Positions 4,186-19,500 of a stretch of DNA of 64,000 nt are shown in pieces (the first letter of the stretch is position 1; each line of letters opens with the position of its first letter). A program made the position numbers and the translations under genes. This DNA comes from Lewinellaceae bacterium (GTDB lineage Bacteria > Bacteroidota > Bacteroidia > Chitinophagales > Saprospiraceae). The stretch lies in contig JACJYL010000002.1 in NCBI GenBank assembly GCA_020636105.1, positions 496,001 to 560,000 of the forward strand. Direction: 5' to 3'. Under the pieces are notes generated by a model. The model searched no databases and was not told the DNA's origin. It saw nothing but the letters and a program-made list of their open reading frames with translations.

Positions 4186-4563
4186 ATGAAAAGCATTTTT
4201 GTCGGTGGAATAGGTGTTTTAGGGCTTGGTTTACTGCTTTGGTATTTTTTGAAACCTCAGAAAGAAGGCAGCGACGACGCCGGAAATACCTGCATTAAAG
4301 TGAACCGCGAAAAGTTCAAGGTCAGGTGGATGGAAGACAACATTCCGGGCGGAATAATCGGGAATATTGCAAAAAGTATCTTCGGTTCTTCCGATCCAAA
4401 ATTTGGCAATATAGTCAGCGGATTTTTTAAGTCTATCGATGTATATCCGTCGGAAGGAGCTGGAAAGTATTACAAAAACCAGATCACAGCCTATTACAAT
4501 AGCCCTAACGGACTTCCCAGGTGGGAGGTGGTACAGGGGGAGCTGGCTTGTGATTCATTTTAA
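4186..4563 (+). CDS. Small protein with N-terminal TM/signal anchor
   Basis: 125 aa; MKSIFVGGIGVLGLGLLLWYFL. Confidence 0.6.
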   Translation: MKSIFVGGIGVLGLGLLLWYFLKPQKEGSDDAGNTCIKVNREKFKVRWMEDNIPGGIIGNIAKSIFGSSDPKFGNIVSGFFKSIDVYPSEGAGKYYKNQITAYYNSPNGLPRWEVVQGELACDSF

Positions 4564-4575
4564 AAAATTATCATT

Positions 4576-5001
4576 ATGGCAATCGAAAAATTTGGTTCCG
4601 GTGCTTATCAGGATTATTTCAAAATCAAAGGAAGCGGAACAACGCAGTCCATTGCCGCATTCGTCCAGGACATCGACGATGGCGGAACCGATGCGATTGA
4701 AGAAATTTACCAGGGAGCTAACCAGGGCATGGTCCTGACTTCCGGTGGAAATGTAGTGTCAATCACCGAATTCGTAAAATATGCGGAACTCGGCGGAACG
4801 GATACCATAACGGGCCAACTAATCGGTGCCGGGTCAAATGTAATTGTGGACGGAGGAGTGATGAAGAACCTGGTAGAAAAACAATCCGGCAATATCCAGG
4901 TACTCGAAGAAGGTCCTGAGATCAGCCTTTTAGAAACAGATGAACCCAGCGGCGACCTATCAGGAGGCGAGGATCCAGAAGCCAGCGATGAGCCGGAGTA
5001 G
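4576..5001 (+). CDS. Hypothetical protein with acidic C-terminal tail
   Basis: 141 aa; G/T-rich; ends DEPSGDLSGGEDPEASDEPE. Confidence 0.6.
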   Translation: MAIEKFGSGAYQDYFKIKGSGTTQSIAAFVQDIDDGGTDAIEEIYQGANQGMVLTSGGNVVSITEFVKYAELGGTDTITGQLIGAGSNVIVDGGVMKNLVEKQSGNIQVLEEGPEISLLETDEPSGDLSGGEDPEASDEPE

Positions 5002-5004
5002 TTG

Positions 5005-5038
5005 AGGGGCCAAGATGCCCCTTAATTGATTTTTTTTC
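5005..5038 (+). terminator. Possible rho-independent terminator
   Basis: Hairpin AGGGGC-CAAGAT-GCCCCT followed by TAATTGATTTTTTTT. Confidence 0.45.
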
Positions 5039-5059
5039 AAAAGTAAAATTTAAACTGTC

Positions 5060-5209
5060 ATGAGTTTATCAAATTTGACAAGTAATAAAGTGGTCCAGGT
5101 GCTTTTTGTTATCGCTGCAGTATTAAGCATAATTGTGGCAGTAAAAACCCTGAGTAAAAAGAAATGCAGTTGCAATGATGACCAAGACCTAACTCCAATT
5201 GAAACTTAA
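5060..5209 (+). CDS. 49-aa single-pass membrane protein, holin-like by position (sORF)
   Basis: Hand translation: MSLSNLTSNKVVQVLFVIAAVLSIIVAVKTLSKKKCSCNDDQDLTPIET. Overlaps the amidase start by 11 nt. Confidence 0.45.
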   Translation: MSLSNLTSNKVVQVLFVIAAVLSIIVAVKTLSKKKCSCNDDQDLTPIET

Positions 5210-5774
5210 TCCGAAAATATTATTCTTTGTCCTGGTCATTGTCTTACTGTCGGTCGTGGTGTACTACAACCTTGGAATTGGTATCAAAAATATCACCAAA
5301 TTCCTGCCAAAACACCCGACAAAACAATTTGACAAAAGGAGTTTAACTGTGATAACGGAGGCCGTGGTTCATCACACGGGCACAGATAGCAAAAGTACAA
5401 CGATTGAAAGCATTGCAAAATATCACGTTGAACCCGGCAATCATATTTGTGACGATGGATGCCCCGGAATTTCTTATCATTTTATGATAAAACCAAACGG
5501 GACCATTTACCAGGTAAACGAATTGGAAACGGTAAGTTATCAGTGTGGCGGTTGTAATTACAATACTATCGGCATTTGCCTGATTGGCAACTTTAACGAA
5601 GAGGTGCCGACTGAAAAGGCCCTGAAAGCAGTGGCCAAAACAATAAAATACGTAAACAGGAGATTAGGCCGGAGTTTGGCCATTTCCGCCCATTACGATC
5701 ATAAAAGTACATCATGTCCGGGCGACAACACCAACATGGACAAAATCATTGAAATGGTGTATCCTATGGCATGA
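5199..5774 (+). CDS. N-acetylmuramoyl-L-alanine amidase (Amidase_2/PGRP fold) with N-terminal TM anchor; endolysin candidate
   Basis: Motifs AVVHHTG, ISYHFMI..NGTIYQ and HYDHKSTSCPG (zinc-ligand pattern). N-terminal ILFFVLVIVLLSVVVYY. TTG start. Confidence 0.85.
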   Translation: MKLNPKILFFVLVIVLLSVVVYYNLGIGIKNITKFLPKHPTKQFDKRSLTVITEAVVHHTGTDSKSTTIESIAKYHVEPGNHICDDGCPGISYHFMIKPNGTIYQVNELETVSYQCGGCNYNTIGICLIGNFNEEVPTEKALKAVAKTIKYVNRRLGRSLAISAHYDHKSTSCPGDNTNMDKIIEMVYPMA

Positions 5775-5792
5775 CCAAAAAAGTATGGAATC

Positions 5793-6362
5793 ATGCAAAA
5801 TATAGAAGTTTGGGTTATCAATGATGTATCAGTCCTTCAAGGTAACAGTAGTTGCCAAAATCCTACCTATTCATCAATATGTAATAAAATTACATCTGCT
5901 TATCAATCAGCTCAAACAAATGTAAATTTAGTTGATGCCTTTGCCCTGCCTGGCAGAAGCCAGGAAATAAGTCCAGTCGTAGAATATTTCAAATTAAAAC
6001 ATTTTCCCGCCCTTGTATTTTATGATCCAGATGGTGGATTGGGCTTTTACGCTATTGACGGCAATAAGATTACTGAAAAAAGGATAAAAAAAGCCTTTGA
6101 AATGGCTGAAAATTACACCTGGGATAACGCAACTGGAGGGTATATCAATGCTGATGGTGACAATGCAAACATAACGGATGATATGGAAACAAAAATAGGC
6201 GGATTAATGGGAGGAGATTGGGGTCTTCCCCTCGGTGGAATGTGGGGCGATTGTAAATCATATCTACCTGATTCCATGGACAAGGTTTGCGACATTCCTG
6301 TATGGCTTTATGCCTTGATCCTTTTATTGATCCTTATTTTATTAATCAAAATTGTGAGCTGA
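5793..6362 (+). CDS. Hypothetical protein with C-terminal TM anchor
   Basis: 189 aa; C-terminal IPVWLYALILLLILILLIKIV. Same reading frame as the amidase, from which it is separated by TGA plus 6 codons. Confidence 0.6.
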   Translation: MQNIEVWVINDVSVLQGNSSCQNPTYSSICNKITSAYQSAQTNVNLVDAFALPGRSQEISPVVEYFKLKHFPALVFYDPDGGLGFYAIDGNKITEKRIKKAFEMAENYTWDNATGGYINADGDNANITDDMETKIGGLMGGDWGLPLGGMWGDCKSYLPDSMDKVCDIPVWLYALILLLILILLIKIVS

Positions 6363-6724
6363 TGGGATTTTGTTTAGGCGGAAAATGGTGCAGAACACAG
6401 GACTGCAAAGAACGTTGCAAAGGATGGTTTGGAGCTCAACCCGACATTGAAAGGTCATGTAAAAATGCCTGCAAGGCAAATTCTGGCTTAACCAAAGATG
6501 ATTTTTTGTGCTCGGGTAACTGGATAGATCAGCAGATCATTTTTGCGGCTTATGGATACGATCCATGCACTGGAGACAATACTACGATTGAAGATTATTT
6601 CGATCCGCTGGATGACCGGGCAAGGGAAGACGCAAAACCTGAAAAATACAAAGATTTAATCATCATAGTAGCTGCCATCTTACTATTGGCATTGGCCGCT
6701 TTGATTTATATAAAAATGAAGTAA
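6362..6724 (+). CDS. Cys-rich protein with C-terminal TM anchor
   Basis: ATG at 6362 overlaps the previous stop (TGATG). Sequence MGFCLGGKWCRTQDCKERCKGW..., C-terminal LIIIVAAILLLALAALIYI. Confidence 0.55.
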   Translation: MGFCLGGKWCRTQDCKERCKGWFGAQPDIERSCKNACKANSGLTKDDFLCSGNWIDQQIIFAAYGYDPCTGDNTTIEDYFDPLDDRAREDAKPEKYKDLIIIVAAILLLALAALIYIKMK

Positions 6725-6940
6725 ATGGAACCCGTTAGCGCGATAGCAAATGCAGTATCTGATATTTTCGGAGGAGTCGTGGCCCTCATTGAAGGAAGGC
6801 GGGAATCTAAATTTGGGAGGCTCCCGGACTGGCTCAGTCCCCGGGACTTCCAGCGCAATGACTACACCGTTGATATCATTATCGGCGCCATGCTTTTGGT
6901 GTTGATTATTGTGATCATCGGCATAACGAGAGCAAAATAA
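6725..6940 (+). CDS. Small membrane protein
   Basis: 71 aa; ATG immediately follows the TAA of the previous gene; TM segment IIIGAMLLVLIIVIIGI. Confidence 0.55.
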   Translation: MEPVSAIANAVSDIFGGVVALIEGRRESKFGRLPDWLSPRDFQRNDYTVDIIIGAMLLVLIIVIIGITRAK

Positions 6941-6952
6941 ACGATAGAGGCG

Positions 6953-7180
6953 ATGTTGAAGAATTATTTCGCAGAAAGGGCCACATTATTAGGATACAGT
7001 GGCTCGGCAACTTATTGGATCATGGAGCATTTTGAAACTGCAGCCGGAATTGTGCTTTCCGTGGCGATGATCGTTGCCTCGATCGTGCTACACGGAATAA
7101 AAATCAGGACGGCATTGAACCGTGAAAAACGTGAACAGGAAATACACGAATTGAAAATTAAAAAGGAACGAAATGGCTGA
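6953..7180 (+). CDS. Small membrane protein
   Basis: 75 aa; TM segment AAGIVLSVAMIVASIVLHGI. Confidence 0.55.
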   Translation: MLKNYFAERATLLGYSGSATYWIMEHFETAAGIVLSVAMIVASIVLHGIKIRTALNREKREQEIHELKIKKERNG

Positions 7181-7460
7181 TTTAAGCGGCATCACAGATT
7201 TGAACTTTATTGGCCTCATGCGCGGAGCTTATAAAGATCCTGTTTTTGGTCTGGAAGGAGTGGACGAGCTGGCCACTCTCGTGGAGATTCTTGAATGGCT
7301 TGGCAATAACGTCGGAGGCGGAGGCGGAGGCAGTGCAGGACCCTATGATGTTTATGACGATGATGCGGCGGCCGCATCCGGAGGGGTGCCCATCGGCGGT
7401 ATTTATGTCCGATCGGCAGCAAGCGGTTTTAGCGGATTATTGGCTCAAAGATTAATTTAA
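7173..7460 (+). CDS. Gly/Ala-rich hypothetical protein
   Basis: 95 aa; overlaps the previous gene by 8 nt (ATGGCTGA); contains a GGGGGSAG tract. Confidence 0.5.
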   Translation: MADLSGITDLNFIGLMRGAYKDPVFGLEGVDELATLVEILEWLGNNVGGGGGGSAGPYDVYDDDAAAASGGVPIGGIYVRSAASGFSGLLAQRLI

Positions 7461-7467
7461 ATTCAAC

Positions 7468-9921
7468 ATGACTATAAAAATGAACTTCTTTAAAGATAGC
7501 GACAAATGGCTTTGGATAGCCATTTTCCTGTTGTTCTCCTGGGCAGCTTCATCCCAAACGATCATCAAAGGAACGGGCATAATTTATTTTGCGGACACCA
7601 CCCAAATGAATGCCTTTGTGCCGAATATAGCCTATGCGGCGGAAATGGCCGTGGTGGTGAATAATGGCCGGCCATATACCTGGGACAGAATCCAAAGCAA
7701 ATGGGTATTGATCGATAACGGAGGCACGGACGATCAAATTTTGTCTTTCGCCGGGACTACCTTATCCATCGAGAACGGCAACAGCGTCAATCTTTCCTCC
7801 CTGCAGGATGGAACCGGGACCGATGACCAGGTGCTAAGCCTGGCCGGAACGACCCTGACCCTTGAAAACGGGGGAAGCGTCAATCTTTCGGTCCTGCAGG
7901 ATGGGACCGGGACCGATGACCAGGTGCTAAGCCTGGCCGGAACGACCCTAACCCTTGAAAACGGGGGAAGCGTCAATCTTTCGGTCTTGCAGGATGGAAC
8001 CGGTACGGATGATCAGACCCTCAACCTGGTCGGTACAACCCTTTCCATCGAGAATGGCAACAGCGTCAATCTATCTTCTGTACAAGATGGCACTGGCACC
8101 GATGACCAGACCCTTGGGCTTACCGGTACAACCCTCAGTATCGAGAATGGCAACAGCGTTAATCTGTCCTTTATTCAGGATGGAACCGGCACGGATGATC
8201 AGACTATTAATCTGGTGGGCGATACATTGAGTATCGAAAACGGTAACAGCGTAATCCTGTCTGGATTCTTGAATACGGACGATCAGACCCTGAGCCTGGC
8301 CGGAACGACTCTGTCTATTGAAGACGGCAATAGTGTGGATCTGTCCGGATTGCAGGACGGTACCGGTACCGATAACCAGACCATCAACCTGGTCGGCACA
8401 ACCTTATCCATCGAAGATGGCAACAGCGTGGATCTATCCGGATTGCAAGATGGCACCGGGACGGATGATCAAACCCTCAACCTGGTGGGCACAACCTTAT
8501 CCATCGAGGACGGCAATAGCGTGGATCTGTCTGGATTACAGGATGGCACCGGAACGGATGACCAGACTCTGGGTCTGGCAGGAACAACCCTTTCCATCGA
8601 GGACGGCAACAGCGTGGACCTATCCGGATTGCAGGATGGTACAGGAACCGACGACCAGCAGCTGAGCCTGGCCAGCAATATCCTGACACTTGAAGACGGC
8701 GGAAGCGTAAATCTTAGCGGATACCTGGACAATACCGATGACCAAACCCTCAACCTGGTCGGCACAACTTTATCCATAGAAGACGGCAACAGTGTAGATC
8801 TTTCAGGACTCCAGGATGGCACCGGCACGGATGACCAAACCCTCAACCTGGTCGGCACAACTTTATCCATAGAAGACGGAAACAGCGTGGATCTTTCAGG
8901 ACTCCAGGATGGCACCGGCACCGATGATCAAACCCTGAATCTAGTCGGCACAACTTTATCAATAGAAGACGGAAACAGCGTGGATCTTTCAGGACTCCAG
9001 GATGGCAATACTAATATTTATAATGCCAATGGCAGCTTACCGGCAGCAACGATAAGAAGCATTCAATTCGGCAGCAACGCCAGCCGTTTCAGATACCTGG
9101 ATCCTGATAACGCGGATCAGTATTTTGAACTTTTTAATAACTCTACGCTCTCAGGAAAAGCCGGAATGTACATCCTTGATGATGACCTGGGATCAAATGG
9201 AAATATTGGCGAAATTGGCCCTTCTGTTTATGGGGTTCTGACGGCGGCCACCGCCAGTGTAAAAGGAGGTTTTGCCTCCCTGATCAATACTCCCGGAACG
9301 ACATTTTTTGCAGTGGATGGTTCAAATATAGCCAGGATTCAGTCTTCCGCAGCTGATTATCGAATAGGGAACCCGGGAACTTCTGCAACCCTATTGCAAA
9401 CTTCAACACAAAGCTGGGTAGTTACCTATGATGATCATACTGGAAATTTATATAAACAAGCATTTCCAACCCCTACAACTTTAACACATTATCACGCACA
9501 ACTGGATAAGGGTAATACCTCTACCGGCGATAGTTTCACGGGTGGTTCATATAAATTTTTAGTTGGTGGATATGGTTTAAATGCGTCAGAATTAAATGGT
9601 TTTTCTTATAATTCTGGAACCGGAGAACTTACATACACAGGCGCAAGTGGAAAAAATTTTCTTATTAATATTTCTATGAATATTAAAACTTCTTCTAAAT
9701 TGACAGAAGTAGTTTTTGATCTATGGCAGGGTGGTACAATCTCTACCACCACTGGAGAATTTGTAATTTCTCCAAACACAGAAAGTTCCTGGCAAACTCT
9801 AAGTTTCAATAAAGTAGTACGTAATTTATCTACCAGTACAATATTTAAGTTTTCTCTTAAATCAACATATTCTGAAACATTAGAGTATAAAAATATACAC
9901 ATATCTTTTACTGAATTTTAA
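7468..9921 (+). CDS. Fibre/spike-like repeat protein with signal peptide (receptor-binding candidate)
   Basis: 817 aa. N-terminal WLWIAIFLLFSWAASSQ, then 14 tandem 31-aa units with consensus DDQTLNLVGTTLSIEDGNSVDLSGLQDGTGT, then a roughly 300-aa non-repetitive C-terminal domain. Confidence 0.8.
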   Translation: MTIKMNFFKDSDKWLWIAIFLLFSWAASSQTIIKGTGIIYFADTTQMNAFVPNIAYAAEMAVVVNNGRPYTWDRIQSKWVLIDNGGTDDQILSFAGTTLSIENGNSVNLSSLQDGTGTDDQVLSLAGTTLTLENGGSVNLSVLQDGTGTDDQVLSLAGTTLTLENGGSVNLSVLQDGTGTDDQTLNLVGTTLSIENGNSVNLSSVQDGTGTDDQTLGLTGTTLSIENGNSVNLSFIQDGTGTDDQTINLVGDTLSIENGNSVILSGFLNTDDQTLSLAGTTLSIEDGNSVDLSGLQDGTGTDNQTINLVGTTLSIEDGNSVDLSGLQDGTGTDDQTLNLVGTTLSIEDGNSVDLSGLQDGTGTDDQTLGLAGTTLSIEDGNSVDLSGLQDGTGTDDQQLSLASNILTLEDGGSVNLSGYLDNTDDQTLNLVGTTLSIEDGNSVDLSGLQDGTGTDDQTLNLVGTTLSIEDGNSVDLSGLQDGTGTDDQTLNLVGTTLSIEDGNSVDLSGLQDGNTNIYNANGSLPAATIRSIQFGSNASRFRYLDPDNADQYFELFNNSTLSGKAGMYILDDDLGSNGNIGEIGPSVYGVLTAATASVKGGFASLINTPGTTFFAVDGSNIARIQSSAADYRIGNPGTSATLLQTSTQSWVVTYDDHTGNLYKQAFPTPTTLTHYHAQLDKGNTSTGDSFTGGSYKFLVGGYGLNASELNGFSYNSGTGELTYTGASGKNFLINISMNIKTSSKLTEVVFDLWQGGTISTTTGEFVISPNTESSWQTLSFNKVVRNLSTSTIFKFSLKSTYSETLEYKNIHISFTEF
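7729..9006 (+). repeat. 14 tandem copies of a 93-bp (31-codon) coding repeat
   Basis: Counted directly in the translation. There are three sub-families (IENGNSVNLS, LENGGSVNLS, IEDGNSVDLS) and two shortened units. Confidence 0.95.
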
Positions 9922-9934
9922 TTAAAAAACAATT

Positions 9935-11482
9935 ATGAAACGCTTTTTGATCATTTTGATGACCGTGCTTTTTACGGTTCAGTTATTTTCCCAGGAAATC
10001 GAAATTCCCCGAAGTTACGAACGTCAAATTAAACGCCAGTCCAAAAAGGTGGAACGCCTTGAGGAAAAGCATGACGTAGTATTAGACCCGGAGGCTACCA
10101 TCCCGCTTTTACAAACCTTTGATAATGATCCGACAGCCATTGAAAACTGGGGGATAAAATACCTGGAATTTGACCAATACAGGGACAAAATCAAGGCAAA
10201 AAAAGATAAAAGGAAGGTCCTGATCGTCATCTTTGACACCGCCGGGGAATTGACGCATCCCTCACTTTTAAAGGCAGCCCTGAAAGGATATTCATACACG
10301 GGTGAACCCCTGGCGGATGAGCATGGCCACGCCACCCATGTAGCGGGAATTATGGCTTCCGATTTTACCAATATCGGGCTTTTGCAGGTTTTGATCGATG
10401 AAGGTTATGTGAAACTTCTCCCGGCCAAAATATTGCACAACCAGGGATGGGGCGATAAACCCGAAATCATTGCAGGTGTAAAGGATATTCTCAATAAAGT
10501 CCAGGTATATGTGGACAATGGATGGCTGGTGATTTTCAACAACTCCTGGGGATGATCGCAGCTGATTGAGGAATTGGTTCCCCTTTATGCGGAAGCCGAA
10601 AAAAAGGGTATTATCGTATGCGCCGCTTCCGGAAATAATGGCAGCAGTCAGGTATCCAATCCGGCCTCCATCAAAAATGTTATTGCCGTCGGGGCCTTGC
10701 AACAGAATGAAAAGGGGGAAGTGAGCCGGGCACCTTATTCCCAATACGGGGAAGCGTTGGAATTCGTGGCCCCGGGTTCTAATATTTACAGCACCTATAA
10801 AAATGGCAGTTTTGCCTTTCTTTCCGGTACCTCGATGGCAACACCGGAAGAAGTCGCTTGTCTGGCCATAACAGGGTCATACCACAGTCAAAACACCCCT
10901 TTGGAAATTGTTTCTCATGTAAGAAAAAACGCCAATGATCTTCCCCCTGCAGGTAAGGATATTTTTACAGGCTACGGAAGTACCCCCATTGGCAACCTAC
11001 TCGATAATATTCCTGAAAAAATTGGTGATGAACCCGACGACCCGGAAGATCCAGGCCAGGATAGCATTGTGATTAAAAAGGAACGCATCATTACCCTTCC
11101 GGTTAATGATCTGAAAATGGTTTGGGGTATTGGTTCCTTCAACGATCAGCGCCCTATCATGGTGGATCTGGTTTTAAATATCACTTCCAACCGCTTGGCA
11201 GAATTAACCTATGATGAGGCCGTTAATCTTGCGAATACCTTTTTCGGACGAACGGGATTGACGTTCTCAGACAAGAAGGCCGACGTTTACGACGCAGCAG
11301 AATGGACCGCAAGGTTTTACCACCGACACGCCAACGAAAAACAGGATGTTTATAAAGTAGGCATCAAACAGATTACCGTGACGGATGAAAAAGGCCGCAC
11401 ATTTACCCGGTTTGGAGAAGATCTAAAGATTTCCGAAAATGTAAGATTTGAAGATATTCCGATCCTGACGCAATTGAAGTAA
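9935..11482 (+). pseudogene. S8 (subtilisin-like) serine peptidase interrupted by one in-frame TGA at 10553-10555
   Basis: Track ORFs 9935-10555 and 10574-11482 share one frame. Catalytic D (IFDTAG), H (HGHATHVAG) and oxyanion N (NNSWG) lie before the stop; the AASGNNG block and S (GTSMATPEE) lie after it. Signal peptide MKRFLIILMTVLFTVQLFSQ. Confidence 0.75.
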
Positions 11483-11514
11483 ATCGATTTATAAAATTCA
11501 AAACCACTCACACT

Positions 11515-11733
11515 ATGTTCACTAAAGATAAAAACACAACAATCGCCGGGATACTGGCCTTTGTTTCCTTGCTGGCCGGCCAGCTTCAATCAATGTTTGA
11601 TGCAGATCCTTTGACCAATCCGGAATGGTCCTTAATTGTTTCAGCGCTTTTTGTGTTGATCGGATTGCTTAGGGCCAAAGATTCTGTAAAAGAAAATCCG
11701 GAAACAAAAGAATTGAACCGAAGAAACGCTTAA
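11515..11733 (+). CDS. Small two-TM membrane protein
   Basis: 72 aa; TM segments IAGILAFVSLLAGQL and WSLIVSALFVLIGLL. Confidence 0.5.
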   Translation: MFTKDKNTTIAGILAFVSLLAGQLQSMFDADPLTNPEWSLIVSALFVLIGLLRAKDSVKENPETKELNRRNA

Positions 11734-11831
11734 TCAAAAGGGCGGTACATTAGTTTTCATAAGTTTACAATAAGCAGCGGGTAATTCACCTTTGGGTGGA
11801 CTGCCCGTTTTTTGCTTAAACCTAAATCAAT

Positions 11832-14714
11832 ATGCCATACAATTTTTCAAAATCGGATATTCCTTACCAAACGGCTTATGAGGCCCATAGAGGCACCTCT
11901 TTTTCTCCTGAACGGCGGGCGAAGAGTGATCAGGAAAGTTATTATCAGGATTTAAAAAATGCGTATGATGAACTTCATGCCCTGGCGGTCAAATGGGATG
12001 CCGTAGATAAGTTTGAAAAGCGGTTTGGCTATTTTGTGGATGGGTATAAAAAGAGGTACCTCGATTATTTGTACAGCCAACACGGCTGGGTAAGTACCAT
12101 GATTGCGGGACCATCCAATTTCCCTGCGGCCCGGATGAATAAAAAAGGGGACCAGGTGCATAAGAAATTGAATGAACTGTTGTCTTATTACAACCTGCAG
12201 CTCAAAAAGATCAAACAGTACCTTAAACCCGCCCACCTCAAGCCGGTCAAGACCGGTCAGGATGGAGCCATCGACATCCTTCAAAAACAACTGGATGACC
12301 GCCTGGCTACGCAGGAAGCCATGAAGGCCGTCAATAAGATCGCCAAATCAAAGACCTTGAGTCGGGAGAAAAAGATCGAAAAGCTAAAAACCGATCTCAA
12401 ATTATCTGATAAGCAGATCGTCGAGGTTATGACCCCGGATTATGCCGGACGCATCGGATATCCGGGTTACCTGCTCACCAATAACAACGCCAACATCAAA
12501 AGGCTCAAAGGCCGGATCAGCGAAGAAAAGAAGCTGGCCGTTCAAAAAGACCAGGGCAACAAAGAACATACATTCGACGGCGGCATGGTGATCGAAAACT
12601 TTGAGCAAAACCGCCTGCAGATCAAACACGATGAAAAGCCCTCCAGGGAGATTATCCAGAAACTCAAAGCCCGTGGTTTTCGCTGGTCACCCTATTACGG
12701 AGTTTGGCAGCGTAATTTGAATACTACTCCGATGTTTTATGCCACCAATATTGTTGGGGAATTGACCCCGGTTGCAAAAGAACCGGAACCAGCCGAAAAC
12801 GTAGAAGATATTGAACTTTCCAAATCCGAGCAGGAAGCCATTGAAAAGCAGGTCAAAAAGCGGATGGAAGAAGTTGAAGAAGAGCCCATAAAGCCAGCAA
12901 AAAAAGAACCAGGGCAAAAAGAAAAAAATTCAACTTTAGCGGAAGAAGCAAAGATTGTCAGGGATTTCATAAAAAAGAAATGGCCCACTTCTTCCAAAAA
13001 AATAAAAGTCCTGAGCAAGGTGGATAAAAATTTATCTGCGAGAACGCATGTATTGATCGATTCCGGCAATACCCCACTGGACTATAAACTAAAAAACTGG
13101 TTTTTCAAAGTCCTGGGAGAACCAAAGGAACCCAATAATGTGGTAAAAGCTTATGGCATTGTTTTATACAGGCCCGAGCTGGTTGTCATTGTAAAGGCTA
13201 TTCAAAAAGAAAATGAAAAATCAGAGCCGGCCGAGGAAAAAGAAGAATGTTCTCGAAACTTTTACATCAATAAGATCCACACCGACCCGGCACGTTTCCA
13301 AAACCGGGAAAAACTTAACAAGGAGATCATCAACGAGATTGCGGAGAACTTCGATGCCAACCAGTTCGACCCAGTGGTGATCTGGTATGATAAGCAAAAA
13401 GAAAACTGGTTTTTATTAGCTGGCCACCACCGACTGAAAGGAGCCGAAAAAGCAGGCCGCAAGATGGTTAAAACCCGCTGCTTTGAGGGAAGTGAGGCCG
13501 AAGCCGTCAAATACGCTAAGGAACTGTCAAACGCCAACAGAACGCTGGAAACGCCAATGGAGCGGGCAAAAATATACAGGGCTGACATTCCAGGAATGCA
13601 CAAAAAGAAACTGGAAAATAAAGCTAAACGCCTGGAAGGTAAAAACTGGAATTTCATTCTTAACCTCGCATATTTAAAGCCGATAGGAAAGGTTTTAACG
13701 GCCCTGGCTGCCCTCGATCATAACAGCGACAAAACAACCCAGCAAAACCTGGAAAAGATTGCAGACTGGACGGGAGAAGCCCGCAGGATGTTTTCACAGC
13801 TCACCGATGCCCATGAAAATGAAATGTATGACTTCCTTTTGTCCAACTTTGCTAAAACTAAAAGTATTTCCCGAAAAACGGACTGGATCACCAAAATAAA
13901 TGCCATGGTCCACCGCCTGGACTTCAATCCGGACGAACCGTTAAACCTCAAAAGGATTGCCTACAAAACGCAAGGAGAAAGCGAATACGAGGCGCAGATG
14001 TTTGCCATAGACGAAGAGATCAAAGCCGTTGAGAAAAGCAAACAGGCGTTAAAGGATCGTTTTAATGATCCAAAGGTTCCTGGGTATGTTCACCCGGATC
14101 TTCCGAGTTACGAGCAAATGCAAAAAGAGGCGGAAGTTATTTCGGAAAAACTGGATCAGAAACTTAAGGCGCTGAGAAAGAAGAAACTCGACCTCATGCA
14201 GCAAAAGGGCCGAATGATAAAAGGAGGCCTGGACCAGGGAAATTTATTTGCCCAGGTAATAAACAAAGTAGATTCAAAGGTCATTGAGATCAGGAAGGAG
14301 CAAAATAGACCGTCTGGCCAGTCTTACGACCTTTTACATAAAGAAATCCACATTCTATTCAGGAAAAAAGAGGATGAACCGAATGGCTTTATTTTTGTAC
14401 GGCAAAATCTGAAATACATTAAAAACATTTTAGAAGTTGCCAAAAATGATAAGGTTGAATTTTCGACATCGGATGTTATAAAATTGGGCGTGATCATTCA
14501 GCCAATTTTGCAAGGAGATGAAGCAATAAAAAATGATGTAGGACGCTCAAATAAAAGAACGCTGGCCCCCACGTTTAATAATCTGCTCCGCTGGACAGGA
14601 AACCCCGGCAGATACGATTTAATTGGCGTAGATACCTTTAAAAATGAAAAACCGACCATCCTTGCCCGGAAGGTCAAAAAAGCACGAATATTTAATCTTT
14701 TAGGAATAAAATAA
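11832..14714 (+). CDS. Large multidomain (polyvalent-type) protein with ParB/Srx-like nuclease domain
   Basis: 960 aa. The ParB-type block is IHTDPARFQNRE...WFLLAGHHRLKGAEKAG. The N-terminal ~300 aa end in RGFRWSPYYGVWQR, which from memory resembles the DUF3560 modules of plasmid and phage proteins. Charged linkers and a long helical C-terminus follow. Confidence 0.75.
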   Translation: MPYNFSKSDIPYQTAYEAHRGTSFSPERRAKSDQESYYQDLKNAYDELHALAVKWDAVDKFEKRFGYFVDGYKKRYLDYLYSQHGWVSTMIAGPSNFPAARMNKKGDQVHKKLNELLSYYNLQLKKIKQYLKPAHLKPVKTGQDGAIDILQKQLDDRLATQEAMKAVNKIAKSKTLSREKKIEKLKTDLKLSDKQIVEVMTPDYAGRIGYPGYLLTNNNANIKRLKGRISEEKKLAVQKDQGNKEHTFDGGMVIENFEQNRLQIKHDEKPSREIIQKLKARGFRWSPYYGVWQRNLNTTPMFYATNIVGELTPVAKEPEPAENVEDIELSKSEQEAIEKQVKKRMEEVEEEPIKPAKKEPGQKEKNSTLAEEAKIVRDFIKKKWPTSSKKIKVLSKVDKNLSARTHVLIDSGNTPLDYKLKNWFFKVLGEPKEPNNVVKAYGIVLYRPELVVIVKAIQKENEKSEPAEEKEECSRNFYINKIHTDPARFQNREKLNKEIINEIAENFDANQFDPVVIWYDKQKENWFLLAGHHRLKGAEKAGRKMVKTRCFEGSEAEAVKYAKELSNANRTLETPMERAKIYRADIPGMHKKKLENKAKRLEGKNWNFILNLAYLKPIGKVLTALAALDHNSDKTTQQNLEKIADWTGEARRMFSQLTDAHENEMYDFLLSNFAKTKSISRKTDWITKINAMVHRLDFNPDEPLNLKRIAYKTQGESEYEAQMFAIDEEIKAVEKSKQALKDRFNDPKVPGYVHPDLPSYEQMQKEAEVISEKLDQKLKALRKKKLDLMQQKGRMIKGGLDQGNLFAQVINKVDSKVIEIRKEQNRPSGQSYDLLHKEIHILFRKKEDEPNGFIFVRQNLKYIKNILEVAKNDKVEFSTSDVIKLGVIIQPILQGDEAIKNDVGRSNKRTLAPTFNNLLRWTGNPGRYDLIGVDTFKNEKPTILARKVKKARIFNLLGIK

Positions 14715-14723
14715 ATTTGAATT

Positions 14724-14834
14724 ATGGAGAATGAAATTTCAACCACGCAGGTAATTATATCTTATTTAATTTTTGCAATGGTGATCGCTTTGGGTGTCAC
14801 TGTTGGGATAGCTGTTAGCAATAAGCTTTTATAG
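14724..14834 (+). CDS. 36-aa membrane peptide (sORF)
   Basis: Hand translation: MENEISTTQVIISYLIFAMVIALGVTVGIAVSNKLL. Its convergent 6-nt overlap with the integrase stop makes this a weak call. Confidence 0.3.
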   Translation: MENEISTTQVIISYLIFAMVIALGVTVGIAVSNKLL

Positions 14835-16001
14835 AAAAAAGTCAAAATCTTTTGCCACTGCAGCCGAATCCAGACCGGAGGCTCTCAAATAACTCCTTAA
14901 GGTTCTAATGTCCGTCCATCCCCCCAGGTCGGCAATTATTTTAATATTCATATTTTGCATGGCCAAATTTGTTGCTGCACTGCGCCTCGCTGTATGTGTA
15001 GTAACAAATTTCCATTTGGGGCCGCTTTCTTCTCCCTGCTTCACCTGAGCATCCACCTTCGCCAAAGCACACACCGTTTTAATATTTCTATTGCTTTGTG
15101 CATTGCTCCCAAAATCCATATCAAAGCCTCTTTTTTCCAGTATTTCCCAGGCTTCTGATTTTACCGGCACTATACATTCGTGACCGGTCTTTTGCTGTTT
15201 GTATTTCAAATAACGTTGTCCTGATTTTTCGAAAAAACTTTCCCGTTTTATGTTCCTGGAATCCTCAAACCGCATAAGGAAATAATAACTCACCAAAAAC
15301 CGATCCCTTTCCTTTTCCAGCCAGACATCACTTTCCAGATTGACGTTTTTAATCGCTTCTATTTCATCCTCGTTAAGATATATCTTGTTTGATGGTTTAC
15401 TTTGATGGACTTTGAATCTGTGGTGCTTATAAATCTCATTAGAATGCAATTCTTTATCCTCGGCAATCCTCATGACCGTTTTAATCACTTTGATGTGTTT
15501 TCCAAATCCGGGCAACCCACACCCTACCCCACCCAAAAGGAAGTTTCTGAAATTATCATAAAATTCCAGATCAATATCGTTAAAAGAAATATCCTTAAGT
15601 TTCTTTTCATCTTTGAACTGATTGATGCGAGTGATCAGGGATTTATAACTTTTTGCGGTATTAGGTTTGTGATCAGTAAACCCGTTTTGGATATCGTTGT
15701 AATAAGAGTTGAGAAAGTCGATAAAACTGGTTTGCTTGGTTTTACCGATCAAATTAATATCACCGGATTCAATTAATTGGGTTTCAATTATCCGTTTTTG
15801 TTCTCCAATTTTTGCATTGATCCGAACATGGTTAGGATGAGTTTTTTTGACAAGTCCTTTTTTATTGTCAAACTCGGAAGGTAAGACGTGAAATTTGGTT
15901 TTTATGTATTTTTTTTCACCATTTGCATTAACATACAGCTTTATGTTACAACTGCCATCAGCTCGGGGTACATAGGTCCAAAGAATAGGTTTTACTTGCA
16001 T
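14829..16001 (-). CDS. Tyrosine site-specific integrase (Bacteroidota phage-integrase type)
   Basis: 390 aa. C-terminal HTARRSAATNL (HxxR) and GGWTDIRTLRSYLR (catalytic Tyr). N-terminal arm-type domain. Adjacent to the tRNA 3' end. Confidence 0.9.
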   Translation of the reverse strand: MQVKPILWTYVPRADGSCNIKLYVNANGEKKYIKTKFHVLPSEFDNKKGLVKKTHPNHVRINAKIGEQKRIIETQLIESGDINLIGKTKQTSFIDFLNSYYNDIQNGFTDHKPNTAKSYKSLITRINQFKDEKKLKDISFNDIDLEFYDNFRNFLLGGVGCGLPGFGKHIKVIKTVMRIAEDKELHSNEIYKHHRFKVHQSKPSNKIYLNEDEIEAIKNVNLESDVWLEKERDRFLVSYYFLMRFEDSRNIKRESFFEKSGQRYLKYKQQKTGHECIVPVKSEAWEILEKRGFDMDFGSNAQSNRNIKTVCALAKVDAQVKQGEESGPKWKFVTTHTARRSAATNLAMQNMNIKIIADLGGWTDIRTLRSYLRASGLDSAAVAKDFDFFL

Positions 16002-16056
16002 CTTTGAAAAATTAAGAATTCTTTGAGGAAATAAGAAATAATTAAGAATAATTAGG

Positions 16057-16106
16057 CCAAATATACCCCAAAAAGACCAAAAAAACCCAAATACAACCCA
16101 AAAAAA
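16057..16106. repeat. Five 10-bp phased CC+A-tract units (predicted intrinsically bent DNA)
   Basis: CCAAATATAC CCCAAAAAGA CCAAAAAAAC CCAAATACAA CCCAAAAAAA, read directly from the sequence. Confidence 0.85.
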
Positions 16107-16133
16107 TAGATGTCATAAACACCTGATAATCAA

Positions 16134-16167
16134 TAAAAAAAGCCCTTGAACGTTGATATTCAAGGGC
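16134..16167 (-). terminator. Rho-independent terminator downstream of tRNA-Glu
   Basis: Minus-strand hairpin GCCCTTGAA-N8-TTCAAGGGC followed by TTTTTTT. Confidence 0.6.
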
Positions 16168-16186
16168 TTATGTCTTGGGTATTGAG

Positions 16187-16258
16187 TAGTCCGTACGGGA
16201 ATCGAACCCGTGTTACCAGGATGAAAACCTGGCGTCCTAACCCCTAGACGAACGGACC
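16187..16258 (-). tRNA. tRNA-Glu (anticodon UUC)
   Basis: Hand-folded 72-nt cloverleaf: GGTCCGT/TC/GTCT-AGGGGTTA-GGAC/G/CCAGG-TTTTCAT-CCTGG/TAAC/ACGGG-TTCGATT-CCCGT/ACGGACT/A. No encoded CCA. Position 1:72 is a G-T (G.U) pair. Confidence 0.9.
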
Positions 16259-16288
16259 ATTTAAGTGGGCTTTTCTTCAAAAGCGATG

Positions 16289-16296
16289 CAAATATA
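16289..16296 (-). promoter_or_regulatory. Candidate -7 box (TATATTTG) for tRNA-Glu
   Basis: The reverse complement of CAAATATA matches TAnnTTTG, about 31 nt upstream of the tRNA 5' end. Confidence 0.4.
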
Positions 16297-16440
16297 AATG
16301 CTTTAGAAATAAAACTCCAAACTTTTTGATTTTTTTTTTCAGGTTTTATCTATAACCACTTTTTCAAAGGTTTAGTTCCTCTCTAATTCGTTGAAAGTCA
16401 GCGTTATCTAAAAAAACACAAAAAGGGAGTTAGGGAATTT

Positions 16441-16480
16441 ACTTTTTAAAGAACAAACCGGAGCGATAGATGCTCCGGTT
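16441..16480 (-). terminator. Terminator hairpin after the T9SS cargo gene
   Basis: AACCGGAGC-N7-GCTCCGGTT followed on the minus strand by TGTTCTTT. Confidence 0.5.
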
Positions 16481-16505
16481 CGTTTCTTAAAAGTGCTTCG
16501 ATTTT

Positions 16506-19500
16506 TTAGCGTTGTACCTTGACCATTTTTTTCATGATCACATGACCTCCCATATTTATTTTCAAGGCATAAAGCCCTGCAGGAAGCTCACTCACTGAAA
16601 TCTGATTCGTATTGTATTGGATGGTGCCAAACTGGACCCCTGACATATCGTAAACCGCCACTGATTCCACCGCAATGTATTGCTTGTTCATGATCGTAAT
16701 AAGATCACTTGCCGGGTTGGGATGAATCCAGGTGTCACGCATGAGGCTGATAAACCCGGCGTCCTCGTCTCTAAGTTTGGTGATTACGCTTGTCTTGTAA
16801 GGATTGTTCAGCGGAATGGGGCTTTGCGACAAGTCAATGGCATTGATCCCTGTTGCCCGTAAATCCATTTCTCCATGAATGCCCGCAATATCATCTATGA
16901 TCCCGTGCAGGATGACGATGGGCCCGTGGCCGGAAACATTATTCTGGTCGGTACGACTGATGGCAATATCAATGCTGTTGGTTTCCAGGTTAAGCCTGCT
17001 AAAGGTTATGGTATTCACCTCTGGCTCTCCCATCCAGCTTACCGGGAAAGAAACCGTCAGGTCGGCTACATTGATAATCTCCGGATCCAGTTCAATGCTG
17101 AAAGCGATGCCGTAAATATCATTCACCGGCTCCCCTTCGGTTCCCAGCATCACAGGAATTTCAAATGGATTGCCAGTAGTAAGATTCTCGGGAACATCCA
17201 TGTACACAGGCGGATCGATATCCGTTCCTTCCAGCGGAGTGAAATTCTCCACTTCACCATGCGTAAGATTGTAATTTTGCTGGATAGCAGCAATATCTGC
17301 ATTATTTACCACGCCATCCCCATTGGTATCCGCATGTTTATAATTGTTATTGTCTTCAAAGAAATGAGTCCAATTATAAGCTGACATGGCATTCCAGTCC
17401 GTAGTGGCTTCCGGACGCTGCGGGCCTTCCGATCCAAAGGCGATACCAATGTTGAGCAGGTCAAAATGATTGGCAATATTGTCGGTATTGGTATCTCCGG
17501 GCCAGACATCCTCATCGCACTCAAAGGTACCGAATTCATAATAGGTGTAACAGGCAGGATTACCAATATCGAGGATGAGAAAATCATACTCGGTACTGCC
17601 ATCTCCTTCAAATGGACCAATAGTCACAAAGGGCAAAGCATAGCTGAATGGACCAAAAATATCCCCATTGGCAAAAATGTAGTATCCCAGCGGACCGTTA
17701 TTGGTTGTATGGAACGCGACATCCACACTAAAAATATCATTATTGCAATCCGTTATATGAGGTTCTACCACCACATCCCAGAAATTGCATCCCCCCGGGT
17801 TACAGGCCGGTGTTTCTACTAAGAAATCAGTACAGCAGTCCGGGTGGTCATTATCACAGATCCTGACATGGAAGTTTTCTCCTTCAAAAGGACCCACACC
17901 TTCTATAAACTGGGTCAGATTATCATAGGCATAAGAGCCTTGGAATTCATTATTGATAAAAAGCTGGTAATAATTGTTGATCGTATTGACGGGGATGAAG
18001 TTCAAAGCGAAGTTATAAGAACCATTGTCATTACAACCCTCGAAGTTCATGGTGATGTCATGGAAGCCACAGCCCTCTGGAGAACAATCAATAGGTCCAA
18101 TAATATCATAGTTCTGGCAGTCAGGGAATTGGTTGTCGGTGACCACAAATTCGTAAACCGTCTCTCCGTTGCCGGCAAAGGGTCCCAGGGTAATGAAAGG
18201 CAACTCATAACTGAAATTGCCATAATTGTTGCCGTTGCCATTAACATGGAATCCTTCATTGCCGTGGTTGGGTGCTACGACTTCAAGGTCAACGAAGAAA
18301 AAACCGTCTTCGTTGCAGTCATGCGCTTCCACGATGACATGGTTGATGGCACAGTCTCCACCGCCGCAGTTCGGCGTTTCCACATTGTGGTCCCAGCAAC
18401 AATCGGGATTGTCATTGTCGCATATCCGAATATTGAAATGGTTGTCGTTGAAAGGTCCTATATTTTCCAGGAAAATCGGCAGATCAGCATAAGAATAATA
18501 TCCATAGAACTCATTATTGAGGTAGAAATCGAAATGGGTATTCGTGGTATTCACCGGAGTGAAGTTCAGAATGTAGTTGTACCCGCCGTTGTCATGGCAG
18601 CCTTCAAAGTTGAAGGTCACCTCTTGAAAACCGCAATCATTGGGGAAGCAATCGATCGGGCCAACAAGTCCGTAATTCTGACAATCCGGAAATTCCAGGT
18701 CAGTGACGATGAATTCATAAACAGTTGTGCCATTGCCTTGAAGAGGTCCTATGGTAACAAACTCAGGCTCATAGCTGAAGTTGCCGTACTCATGACCGTT
18801 GCCGTGAACGCTGAAGCCCTGGGTGCCCAGATTAGCGCCCTGTACCGAAAGGAATACATAAAACAGTCCATCCGCATTACATTCACCGGCCTGCACCGCA
18901 ACATTTTCGATTACACAATTATCAGAAACCGGGCAGTTCGGCGTTTCCACATTGTGGTCCCAGCAACAATCAGCATTGTCATTGTCGCATATCCGAATAT
19001 TGAAATGGTTGTCGTTGAAAGGTCCTATATTTTCCAGGAAAATCGGCAGATCAGCATAGGAATAATATCCATAGAACTCATTATTGAGGTAGAAATCGAA
19101 ATGGGTATTCGTGGTATTCACCGGAGTGAAGTTCAGAATATAATTGTAACCACCATTATCGTGACAGCCTTCAAAATTGAAGGTCACCTCTTGAAAACCA
19201 CAATCGAGAGGAGGGCAAACCGGAGTTGGCACTTCAACTGAAGCACAGCAATCTGTAAGGGCATTGTCGCAAATGGTAAGGGTAAAAAAATCTGTATTGA
19301 GTGGCCCAAAAGAAACCAGGTGAACCGGAAGGTTTTCATAAGCATAAGTGCCAAGAAATTGCTCTCCTAAAAATACATCGAATCCATCGAAACCCGTATT
19401 GGTATAATTAAAATTCAATAAATAATTATAGGCACCAATCGTTCCCTCACTGGTACATGACTGAAAATCAAGCACCACATCATAAATATTACATTGCGGA

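Follow-up and report, generated by a model that had tools for sequence, protein, structure and literature searches.

A probable polyvalent protein with an uncatalogued C-terminal tail in a tRNA-Glu-integrated element of a Lewinellaceae bacterium

We analyzed a 64,000-nucleotide (nt) stretch of the genome of a Lewinellaceae bacterium (hereafter, the window), in which a preliminary description made from the sequence alone had pointed to a 960-amino-acid (aa) protein of polyvalent type encoded at positions 11832 to 14714. The gene lies in a 29-kb temperate element that is integrated at a tRNA-Glu gene of this Saprospiraceae-like Bacteroidota genome. Our results suggest, with moderate confidence, that its product is a polyvalent protein as defined by Iyer et al. 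2017, which would be delivered together with the element DNA and would act on the incoming genome. The protein ends with a previously uncatalogued C-terminal tail, which in other elements is joined to effector enzymes of quite different kinds. Polyvalent proteins have been described in phages and conjugative elements, the DarB and DdrB proteins of phage P1 being examples (Iyer, Burroughs, Anand, de Souza, Aravind 2017; PMC5512222). We placed the window protein among them because of its anatomy and because of the network of proteins that share its modules.

We infer a course of events in which the protein would be made late and carried along with the element DNA by way of its conserved C-terminal tail, a putative targeting or anchoring module whose partner might be either a membrane micro-protein encoded right behind the gene or the DNA itself. 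On arrival in the next cell, a ParB-like NTP-binding or nicking domain, in which a His stands in place of the catalytic Glu, and a DUF3560-like helical module with a small putative DNA-binding domain would both act on the incoming genome. The outcome could be that the genome is shielded from restriction, or that its circularization or establishment is helped, as is done by P1 DarB and DdrB and by plasmid ArdC-type proteins.

Modules of the protein and their relatives

The open reading frame (ORF) had been described exactly with respect to coordinates, strand and ATG start, and every motif quoted from it was located in the protein: RGFRWSPYYGVWQR at aa 281-294, DPARFQNRE at aa 485-493 and LLAGHHRLKGAEKAG at aa 528-542. 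A paralogue on contig C1, which forms a 1272-aa open frame, is 89% identical across the shared parts. The ratio of nonsynonymous to synonymous substitution rates (dN/dS) between the two copies was 0.08 for the whole gene, with values of 0.07 for the N-module, 0.13 for the linker and central domain, 0.07 for the ParB module and 0.05 for the C-terminus. Because an 89% identical paralogue exists and dN/dS is only 0.05-0.13 in each module, we regarded the 960-aa ORF as a real gene under strong purifying selection and not as a chance ORF. Homologues at 30-89% identity were found for all modules save the central one, for which there were close relatives only, and a search of NCBIfam gave no match for the 960-aa protein.

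The protein is composed of four modules with charged linkers between them (Table 1); the highly charged linkers noticed earlier correspond to two segments in which 51-55% of the residues are charged. Polyvalent proteins are recognized by the presence of at least two disparate globular domains and by a shared domain network. In the window protein, homologue coverage and AlphaFold 2 (AF2) models delimited four separately mobile modules, and homologues of the N- and ParB modules carried the domains PF18818, PF08401, PF18760, PF18763, PF18847, PF18798 and PF18857. The polyvalent-type architecture that had been proposed was thus borne out, in that these two modules are mobile units shared with proteins containing ArdC-N and MPTase-PolyVal, ART-PolyVal, ddrB-ParB, LPD, Zeta toxin or methyltransferase domains. 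As in known polyvalent proteins, independently mobile modules are joined in one polypeptide, the gene lies in a mobile element, near genes that may be of late type, the ParB-superfamily domain has no ParA partner, the modules are shared with proteins bearing the Pfam 'PolyVal' and 'LPD' domains, and the domain content varies among close relatives. In contrast to known polyvalent proteins, the window protein contains no MPTase or other peptidase, methylase, helicase or ART domain, and its N-module variant, ParB extension and tail module lie outside every Pfam family.

The N-module, for which the AF2 model had a predicted local distance difference test (pLDDT) score of 94.4, had been described as DUF3560-like, and we compared it with three Bacteroidota DUF3560 proteins. 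Residues 146-312 aligned downstream of the Pfam domain in these proteins (39% identity, BLASTP E = 3e-22), and aa 132-313 matched them with an hhalign probability of 99.9%; this part is homologous to the C-terminal half of Bacteroidota members of the DUF3560 (PF12083) proteins, which are known from plasmids and phages. The whole N-module model also matched a viral DUF3560-annotated protein in a Foldseek search of BFVD (E = 1.2e-13, 328 columns), and nothing significant was obtained for it from the PDB. However, the Pfam model of DUF3560 (cut-off 27.2 bits), which spans the N-terminal 124 positions of DUF3560 proteins, did not match the window protein, whether in hmmscan (E ≤ 1) or in a search of the genome (E ≤ 10), and aa 1-131 did not align to the Pfam-defined part in the profile comparison. 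Where DUF3560 proteins carry the Pfam region, the window family has its own motifs, H.GTSFSPERR and GPSNFP. The N-module is accordingly DUF3560-like in its fold and in its C-terminal half, and it stands outside the Pfam family as delimited by its model. The mini-domain at its end (aa 244-308, 65 aa) has the order beta-beta-beta-alpha-beta-beta-alpha in the AF2 model and showed a weak local fold match to the DNA-binding domain of T4 MotA (probability 0.97, E = 1.1). Weak BFVD matches had raised HARP and DUF5710 as identities of this mini-domain, and both were discarded, since neither hidden Markov model (HMM) reached the gene at E ≤ 10.

This module (aa 2-310) is found in N-terminal, internal or C-terminal position in proteins with ArdC-N and MPTase-PolyVal, Zeta toxin, ART-PolyVal, ddrB-ParB or LPD29 domains, and it is encoded in at least 535 IMG/VR viral stretches. 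Among the best 80 IMG/VR matches, 59 were solo proteins of ~300 aa and 15 were located inside proteins of more than 700 aa, the largest having 4662 aa. The nearest two viral giants (4662 and 4300 aa) combine it with ddrB-ParB and an SNF2 helicase, and with ART-PolyVal, LPD38 and LPD23, respectively.

Residues 478-600 belong to the ParB/Srx superfamily, and the earlier assignment of a ParB domain was upheld at the profile level. When a 23-sequence profile was compared with the PDB, the Noc, ParB and Spo0J structures were matched at E values from 2.8e-9 to 8e-5 over profile positions 8-130; the single sequence matched Noc (7nfu) at E = 9e-4, and PHROG 1033 matched the domain at E = 2.7e-9. The Pfam model ParB_N (PF02195) scored 15.6-18 bits (E = 0.003-0.017), which is under its gathering score of 26.3 bits, and close homologues carry a precomputed PF02195 match. 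In the alignments of the module, columns F, Q, R, G, H, R and N were invariant. As in the CTP-dependent clamps Noc, ParB and Spo0J, the domain aligns in three boxes (RFQ.R, G..R and the box III Asn), retaining RFQ.R of box I, the Gly and the last Arg of box II and the Asn of box III. However, the Glu of the ParB motif GERR is replaced by an invariant His in the window family, GH(H/S)R. In ParB, this Glu is required for CTP hydrolysis. Because the catalytic Glu is replaced by an invariant His, the chemistry of the window domain probably differs from that of ParB. The window protein differs from the ParB clamps further in giving no match to a helix-turn-helix or C-terminal domain, in having no ParA, and in that the domain forms part of a multidomain protein of 960 aa.

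A helical extension of 210 residues accompanies the ParB N-domain in every case, and the profile found no sequence match in the PDB past position ~130, including any to a helix-turn-helix or C-terminal dimerization domain. The preliminary description had recognized nothing in aa 600-960. We found that aa 600-810 are part of the conserved ParB module and that aa 811-960 form a recurrent terminal tail module; neither the extension nor the tail is in Pfam or was matched in the PDB. The unit aa 479-810 recurs in ~30 multidomain proteins, in addition to gp43 of Salisaeta phage SSIP-1, and its homologues carry methyltransferases, ArdC-N/MPTase or LPD domains. Unlike that of P1 DdrB, the ParB domain is not of the DdrB-like family (PF18763), whose model gave no match at E ≤ 1. 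Fusions of ParB and methyltransferase domains are known from phages and plasmids, e.g. Bce_0392 (PMC5512222). The closest relatives across the full block aa 470-960 (51-56% identity) resemble these fusions, as they are proteins of 1000-1466 aa with a methyltransferase N-terminal to the ParB-tail block, whereas the window protein has the DUF3560-like module and a small domain instead.

The central small domain was detected in the closest homologues, and its search returned no relatives past them. A small domain found in one to three copies among relatives resembles it weakly (E = 0.02), and small domains have been gained or lost in two close relatives, whose shared parts are 85-89% identical. 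The C1 paralogue contains two extra small-domain inserts, and between this gene and the integrase homologue there is ~16 kb of other DNA.

We considered the possibility that the protein serves maintenance or replication of the element, in which case a ParB-like centromere- or origin-binding, NTP-dependent clamp and a DNA-binding helical module would partition or organize the circular form, or aid the start of replication, and the protein would not be delivered. The best alignments of the ParB N-domain are indeed to Noc, ParB and Spo0J, which are chromosomal CTP-binding proteins. PHROG 19458, which matches the N-module at E = 1e-34 (as does PHROG 6744), bears the label 'primase', N-module genes that stand alone map to the early or replication regions in some phages, and the gene order of one related locus (L124) is as expected of a circular form. 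However, no CbiA-family match was obtained in the element, and its only P-loop protein, an ATPase of 197 aa, has a classical Walker A motif and not the deviant ParA type. No ParB helix-turn-helix or C-terminal dimerization domain was matched, and the replication-like genes sit in the arm of the element opposite to the polyvalent gene. In otherwise syntenic Saprospiraceae elements, a methyltransferase replaces the N-module, and such shuffling of effectors fits better than a core role in replication. We therefore consider this possibility unlikely. A canonical chromosomal or plasmid partition ParB did not fit as an identity, given the absence of ParA from the element and of helix-turn-helix and C-terminal domain matches; a primase likewise found no support, given that no primase Pfam match was obtained and that neither a Toprim nor an archaeo-eukaryotic primase fold was present in the N-module model or among the Foldseek matches. 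The preliminary description had named a canonical ParB with its ParA, or a primase or replicase architecture, as the findings that would speak against it, and neither was encountered.

The C-terminal tail and the membrane sORF behind it

We searched 1.84 billion representative proteins for the tail module (E ≤ 1e-3) and obtained 126 matches. The module was terminal in 102 of 121 proteins, ending no more than 15 aa from the C-terminus. Among the 84 tail proteins scanned with Pfam, the partners were Zeta-toxin (12), RelA/SpoT (6) and LPD1 (4), with DUF3560, MutS_I, methylase, LPD29 and EcoRII-N domains as others, and no Pfam family covered the tail itself. Two cohesin-scaffoldin proteins were set aside as spurious homologues because their many weak repeat matches fell to E = 0.01 with a shorter query. 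The AF2 model of the tail (pLDDT 77) consists of a helical bundle and a small confident hairpin-helix unit, and Foldseek found no fold match for the C-terminal model in the PDB. The last ~22 residues are conserved yet of low confidence in the isolated model, as would be expected of a docking peptide. The tail module is rare: it was found in 30 metagenome loci and in none of 400 other sampled Bacteroidota genomes.

Directly behind the gene, we found an unannotated short ORF (sORF) of 36 aa (Table 1), which is conserved in the C1 copy, in loci L097, L100-L103 and L124, and among Saprospiraceae relatives. Unrelated transmembrane sORFs are present at the same place in distant tail-bearing loci; in 12 of 17 loci, the tail-bearing gene has a single-pass membrane sORF of 32-41 aa no more than 60 nt behind it, compared with 12% for other genes there. 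As these loci are related (grouping the 17 by eye, 5 of ~8 lineages were positive), we take the association as a lead and not as a statistic. The polyvalent gene, which had been called the last gene before the integrase, is hence the last large gene and not strictly the last, because this sORF precedes the integrase.

These features also bear on the possibility that the protein is a structural or scaffold component of a particle, in which the long helices and the membrane-proximal tail would be architectural (the protein being, for example, length-determining or associated with a vertex or membrane) and the ParB domain would only bind packaged DNA. The protein is largely helical, a fiber-like gene is adjacent and a conserved membrane micro-protein is encoded behind it. 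Furthermore, gp43 of SSIP-1, which shares the ParB module with the window protein (31% identity over 272 aa, E = 2e-23), is recorded as a virion structural protein; this record is also the one indirect indication that a protein of this kind may travel with the DNA into a new host. Like the window protein, gp43 is a large multidomain protein, and it is encoded among the structural genes of a temperate phage with an integrase. However, it is 2.4 times larger (2319 aa), carries a methyltransferase and has no match to the tail module, the alignment covering query residues 475-746 only; a tblastx comparison of the element with SSIP-1 revealed no similarity outside the ParB region. The rapid swapping of modules in close relatives and the presence of the same tail on enzymes are atypical of a core architectural protein, and solo N-modules are common among tailed phages of unrelated architecture. 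A purely structural role thus appears quite improbable to us, more so than a role in maintenance.

The integrated element and related loci

The element spans 29.2 kb (C2:482986-512199, window positions -13014 to 16199) between 25-bp exact direct repeats. A repressor-like gene lies in one arm together with one for an ImmA-like regulator. The plus strand carries a long block that encodes a methylase, the P-loop ATPase of 197 aa, numerous proteins with one or two transmembrane segments, an amidase endolysin, a fiber-like repeat protein of 817 aa and an S8 protease, and that is followed by the polyvalent gene and then by the integrase. Approximately 18 element proteins have at least one transmembrane-like segment. 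PHROG and Pfam scans covered ~40 other element proteins, and the only ones named in them were the repressor, the ImmA-like regulator, the methylase, the endolysin, the S8 protease and a weak packaging-ATPase-like match. The 197-aa ATPase, which has a classical GxxGxGKS motif, weakly matched a PHROG family labeled terminase large subunit (E = 2e-6). These scans detected no capsid, portal, terminase or type IV secretion gene, and HMM searches within C2:482986-512199 found no HK97 capsid, Terminase_6N, relaxase or CbiA/ParA. The polyvalent gene is co-oriented with the upstream endolysin, S8 protease and fiber-like genes in an element with attachment (att) repeats and an integrase, and its position at the end of the late-looking block, before the integrase, is conserved among related elements. 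A second syntenic copy of the element is present at C1:1088152-1132800 (77-90% nucleotide identity), and a degraded third copy lies on C2.

Several observations weigh against a polyvalent protein delivered with the DNA. The element has no detectable hallmarks of a tailed phage or of conjugation, and thereby differs, in lacking a detected portal-terminase system and conjugation genes, from the contexts in which polyvalent proteins were defined. The ParB-like domain is the only enzymatic-looking one, so that the protein is unusually plain for this class. In IMG/VR, the tail module was found at one locus. The S8 gene of the window has an in-frame TGA at 10556-10558, and the window copy of this gene is either a nonsense mutant or in need of read-through, because the TGA replaces a Gly codon of the 92%-identical C1 copy; given this nonsense codon, the window copy of the element may be decaying. 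Finally, accessory (moron) genes of prophages typically sit beside the integrase and att site as well.

That position is a classical site of prophage defense and exclusion genes, and we accordingly weighed whether the gene might be expressed in the lysogen from the att-proximal end, its ParB-like nuclease attacking or excluding other incoming elements. Tail-bearing relatives carry Zeta-toxin and RelA/SpoT domains, which also occur in abortive-infection systems, and a terminator-like hairpin, of a kind no commoner here than in shuffled sequence, sets the gene apart from the upstream operon. ParB-superfamily nuclease domains are found in defense systems such as GmrSD and DndB (PMC5512222). However, a search of PADLOC-DB 2.0 matched zero families at E ≤ 1e-3 for the window protein and, for its closest relatives, none but methylase models in one. 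The modules belong to the polyvalent-protein network, the ParB module is present in a virion structural protein, and the gene is co-oriented and syntenic with the lysis, fiber and protease block across diverged elements. A moron or defense role therefore seems as improbable to us as a role in maintenance. Taken together, the rivals to a polyvalent protein are weakened by the lack of ParA, of a primase fold and of a PADLOC match, and by module swapping among close relatives.

In Lewinella, Flavilitoribacter nigricans and Saprospiraceae metagenome-assembled genomes, we observed the order endolysin, S8 protease, ParB-tail protein and opposite-strand integrase beside a tRNA, with integrase homologues just downstream of the ParB-tail gene; this gene order is common to L098-L103 and L124-L131. 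Modules that are fused in the window protein are also encoded apart. At L139, an N-module gene adjoins a tail gene, and at L145 a ParB gene is followed by a tail gene. At L140 (1420-10171), three consecutive large genes look like a split polyvalent protein: the first encodes a DarB-like methylase with an SNF2 helicase (1318 aa), the product of the second (840 aa) is ParB-like, and that of the third (746 aa) ends with the tail.

Two further loci were of note. In L124 (metagenome contig WBZL01000915.1, 32.4 kb), positions 4461-19385 contain the S8 protease, the polyvalent gene, the integrase, the repressor and a homologue of a 451-aa protein, an order that would be expected if this were the circular, excised form of a related element. 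In L099 (Flavilitoribacter nigricans, 8941-11434), the homologous ParB-tail gene is probably a pseudogene, because it is split over several ORFs.

Table 1. Features of the window, in order of position (strand: +, plus; -, minus;., not stranded)
Feature	Position	Strand	Basis and remarks
S8 subtilase gene, upstream	9935..11482	+	Pfam, PHROG; one in-frame TGA; syntenic with the polyvalent gene in relatives
Whole polyvalent-type gene	11832..14714	+	960 aa, ATG start, ORF list
N-module (aa 1-313)	11832..12770	+	Long helical hairpins and small C-terminal alpha/beta mini-domain; DUF3560-like fold
N-module sub-region A (aa 1-131)	11832..12224	+	Motifs H.GTSFSPERR and MI(A/T)GPSNFP, conserved (44 and 47 homologues)
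N-module sub-region B (aa 132-313)	12225..12770	+	Homologous to C-terminal half of DUF3560 proteins; ends with GFRWSP...WQR mini-domain (aa 244-308)
Charged linker 1 (aa 314-358)	12771..12905	+	51% D/E/K/R; pLDDT drops at end of N-module model
Central small domain, lineage-specific (aa 359-457)	12906..13202	+	In close relatives P0001-P0003 only; no Pfam match
Charged linker 2 (aa 458-477)	13203..13262	+	55% charged residues
ParB/Srx-superfamily N-terminal domain (aa 478-600)	13263..13631	+	Motifs RFQNR, AGHHR (GERR in ParB), SNANR (ENLQR in ParB)
Helical extension of ParB module (aa 601-810)	13632..14261	+	Invariant EGKN, LTDAHENE, PLNLKR; two alignments
C-terminal tail module (aa 811-960; core 902-960)	14262..14711	+	NKR.L.PT..NLLRW...PG.YDLIGVD...PT...K..IFNLLGIK
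36-aa single-pass membrane sORF, MENEISTTQVIISYLIFAMVIALGVTVGIAVSNKLL	14724..14834	+	Unannotated; overlaps integrase stop by a few bases
Tyrosine integrase	14829..16001	-	Pfam Arm-DNA-bind_5, SAM_5 and catalytic domains
Right 25-bp direct repeat (att)	16175..16199	.	Exact-match search; overlaps 3' end of tRNA-Glu; left copy at C2:482986
tRNA-Glu	16186..16258	-	Beyond the integrase

Implications for mobile elements

A practical gain from these results is that the module boundaries are clean, with an N-module variant, an extended ParB module and a terminal tail that lie outside every Pfam family. The most useful lead among them is the tail. Because it is short, position-locked and fused to many different effectors, it is a candidate delivery or anchoring signal that can be tested, and it also offers a handle for finding related elements in metagenomes. 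As a tentative and rather doubtful extension of this idea, the last 60-100 residues could be an undescribed cargo tag of poorly catalogued temperate elements (probably tailless, membrane-containing viruses, largely missed by virus-detection pipelines), which would load interchangeable ParB, methylase, Zeta-toxin kinase, RelA/SpoT and LPD1 effectors into the particle and would dock on the single-pass membrane micro-protein encoded behind the tail gene in most lineages. More broadly, because the window element shows the hallmarks of neither a tailed phage nor a conjugative element, the strategy by which a multi-tool protein accompanies the DNA may extend beyond the tailed phages and conjugative elements in which it was described.

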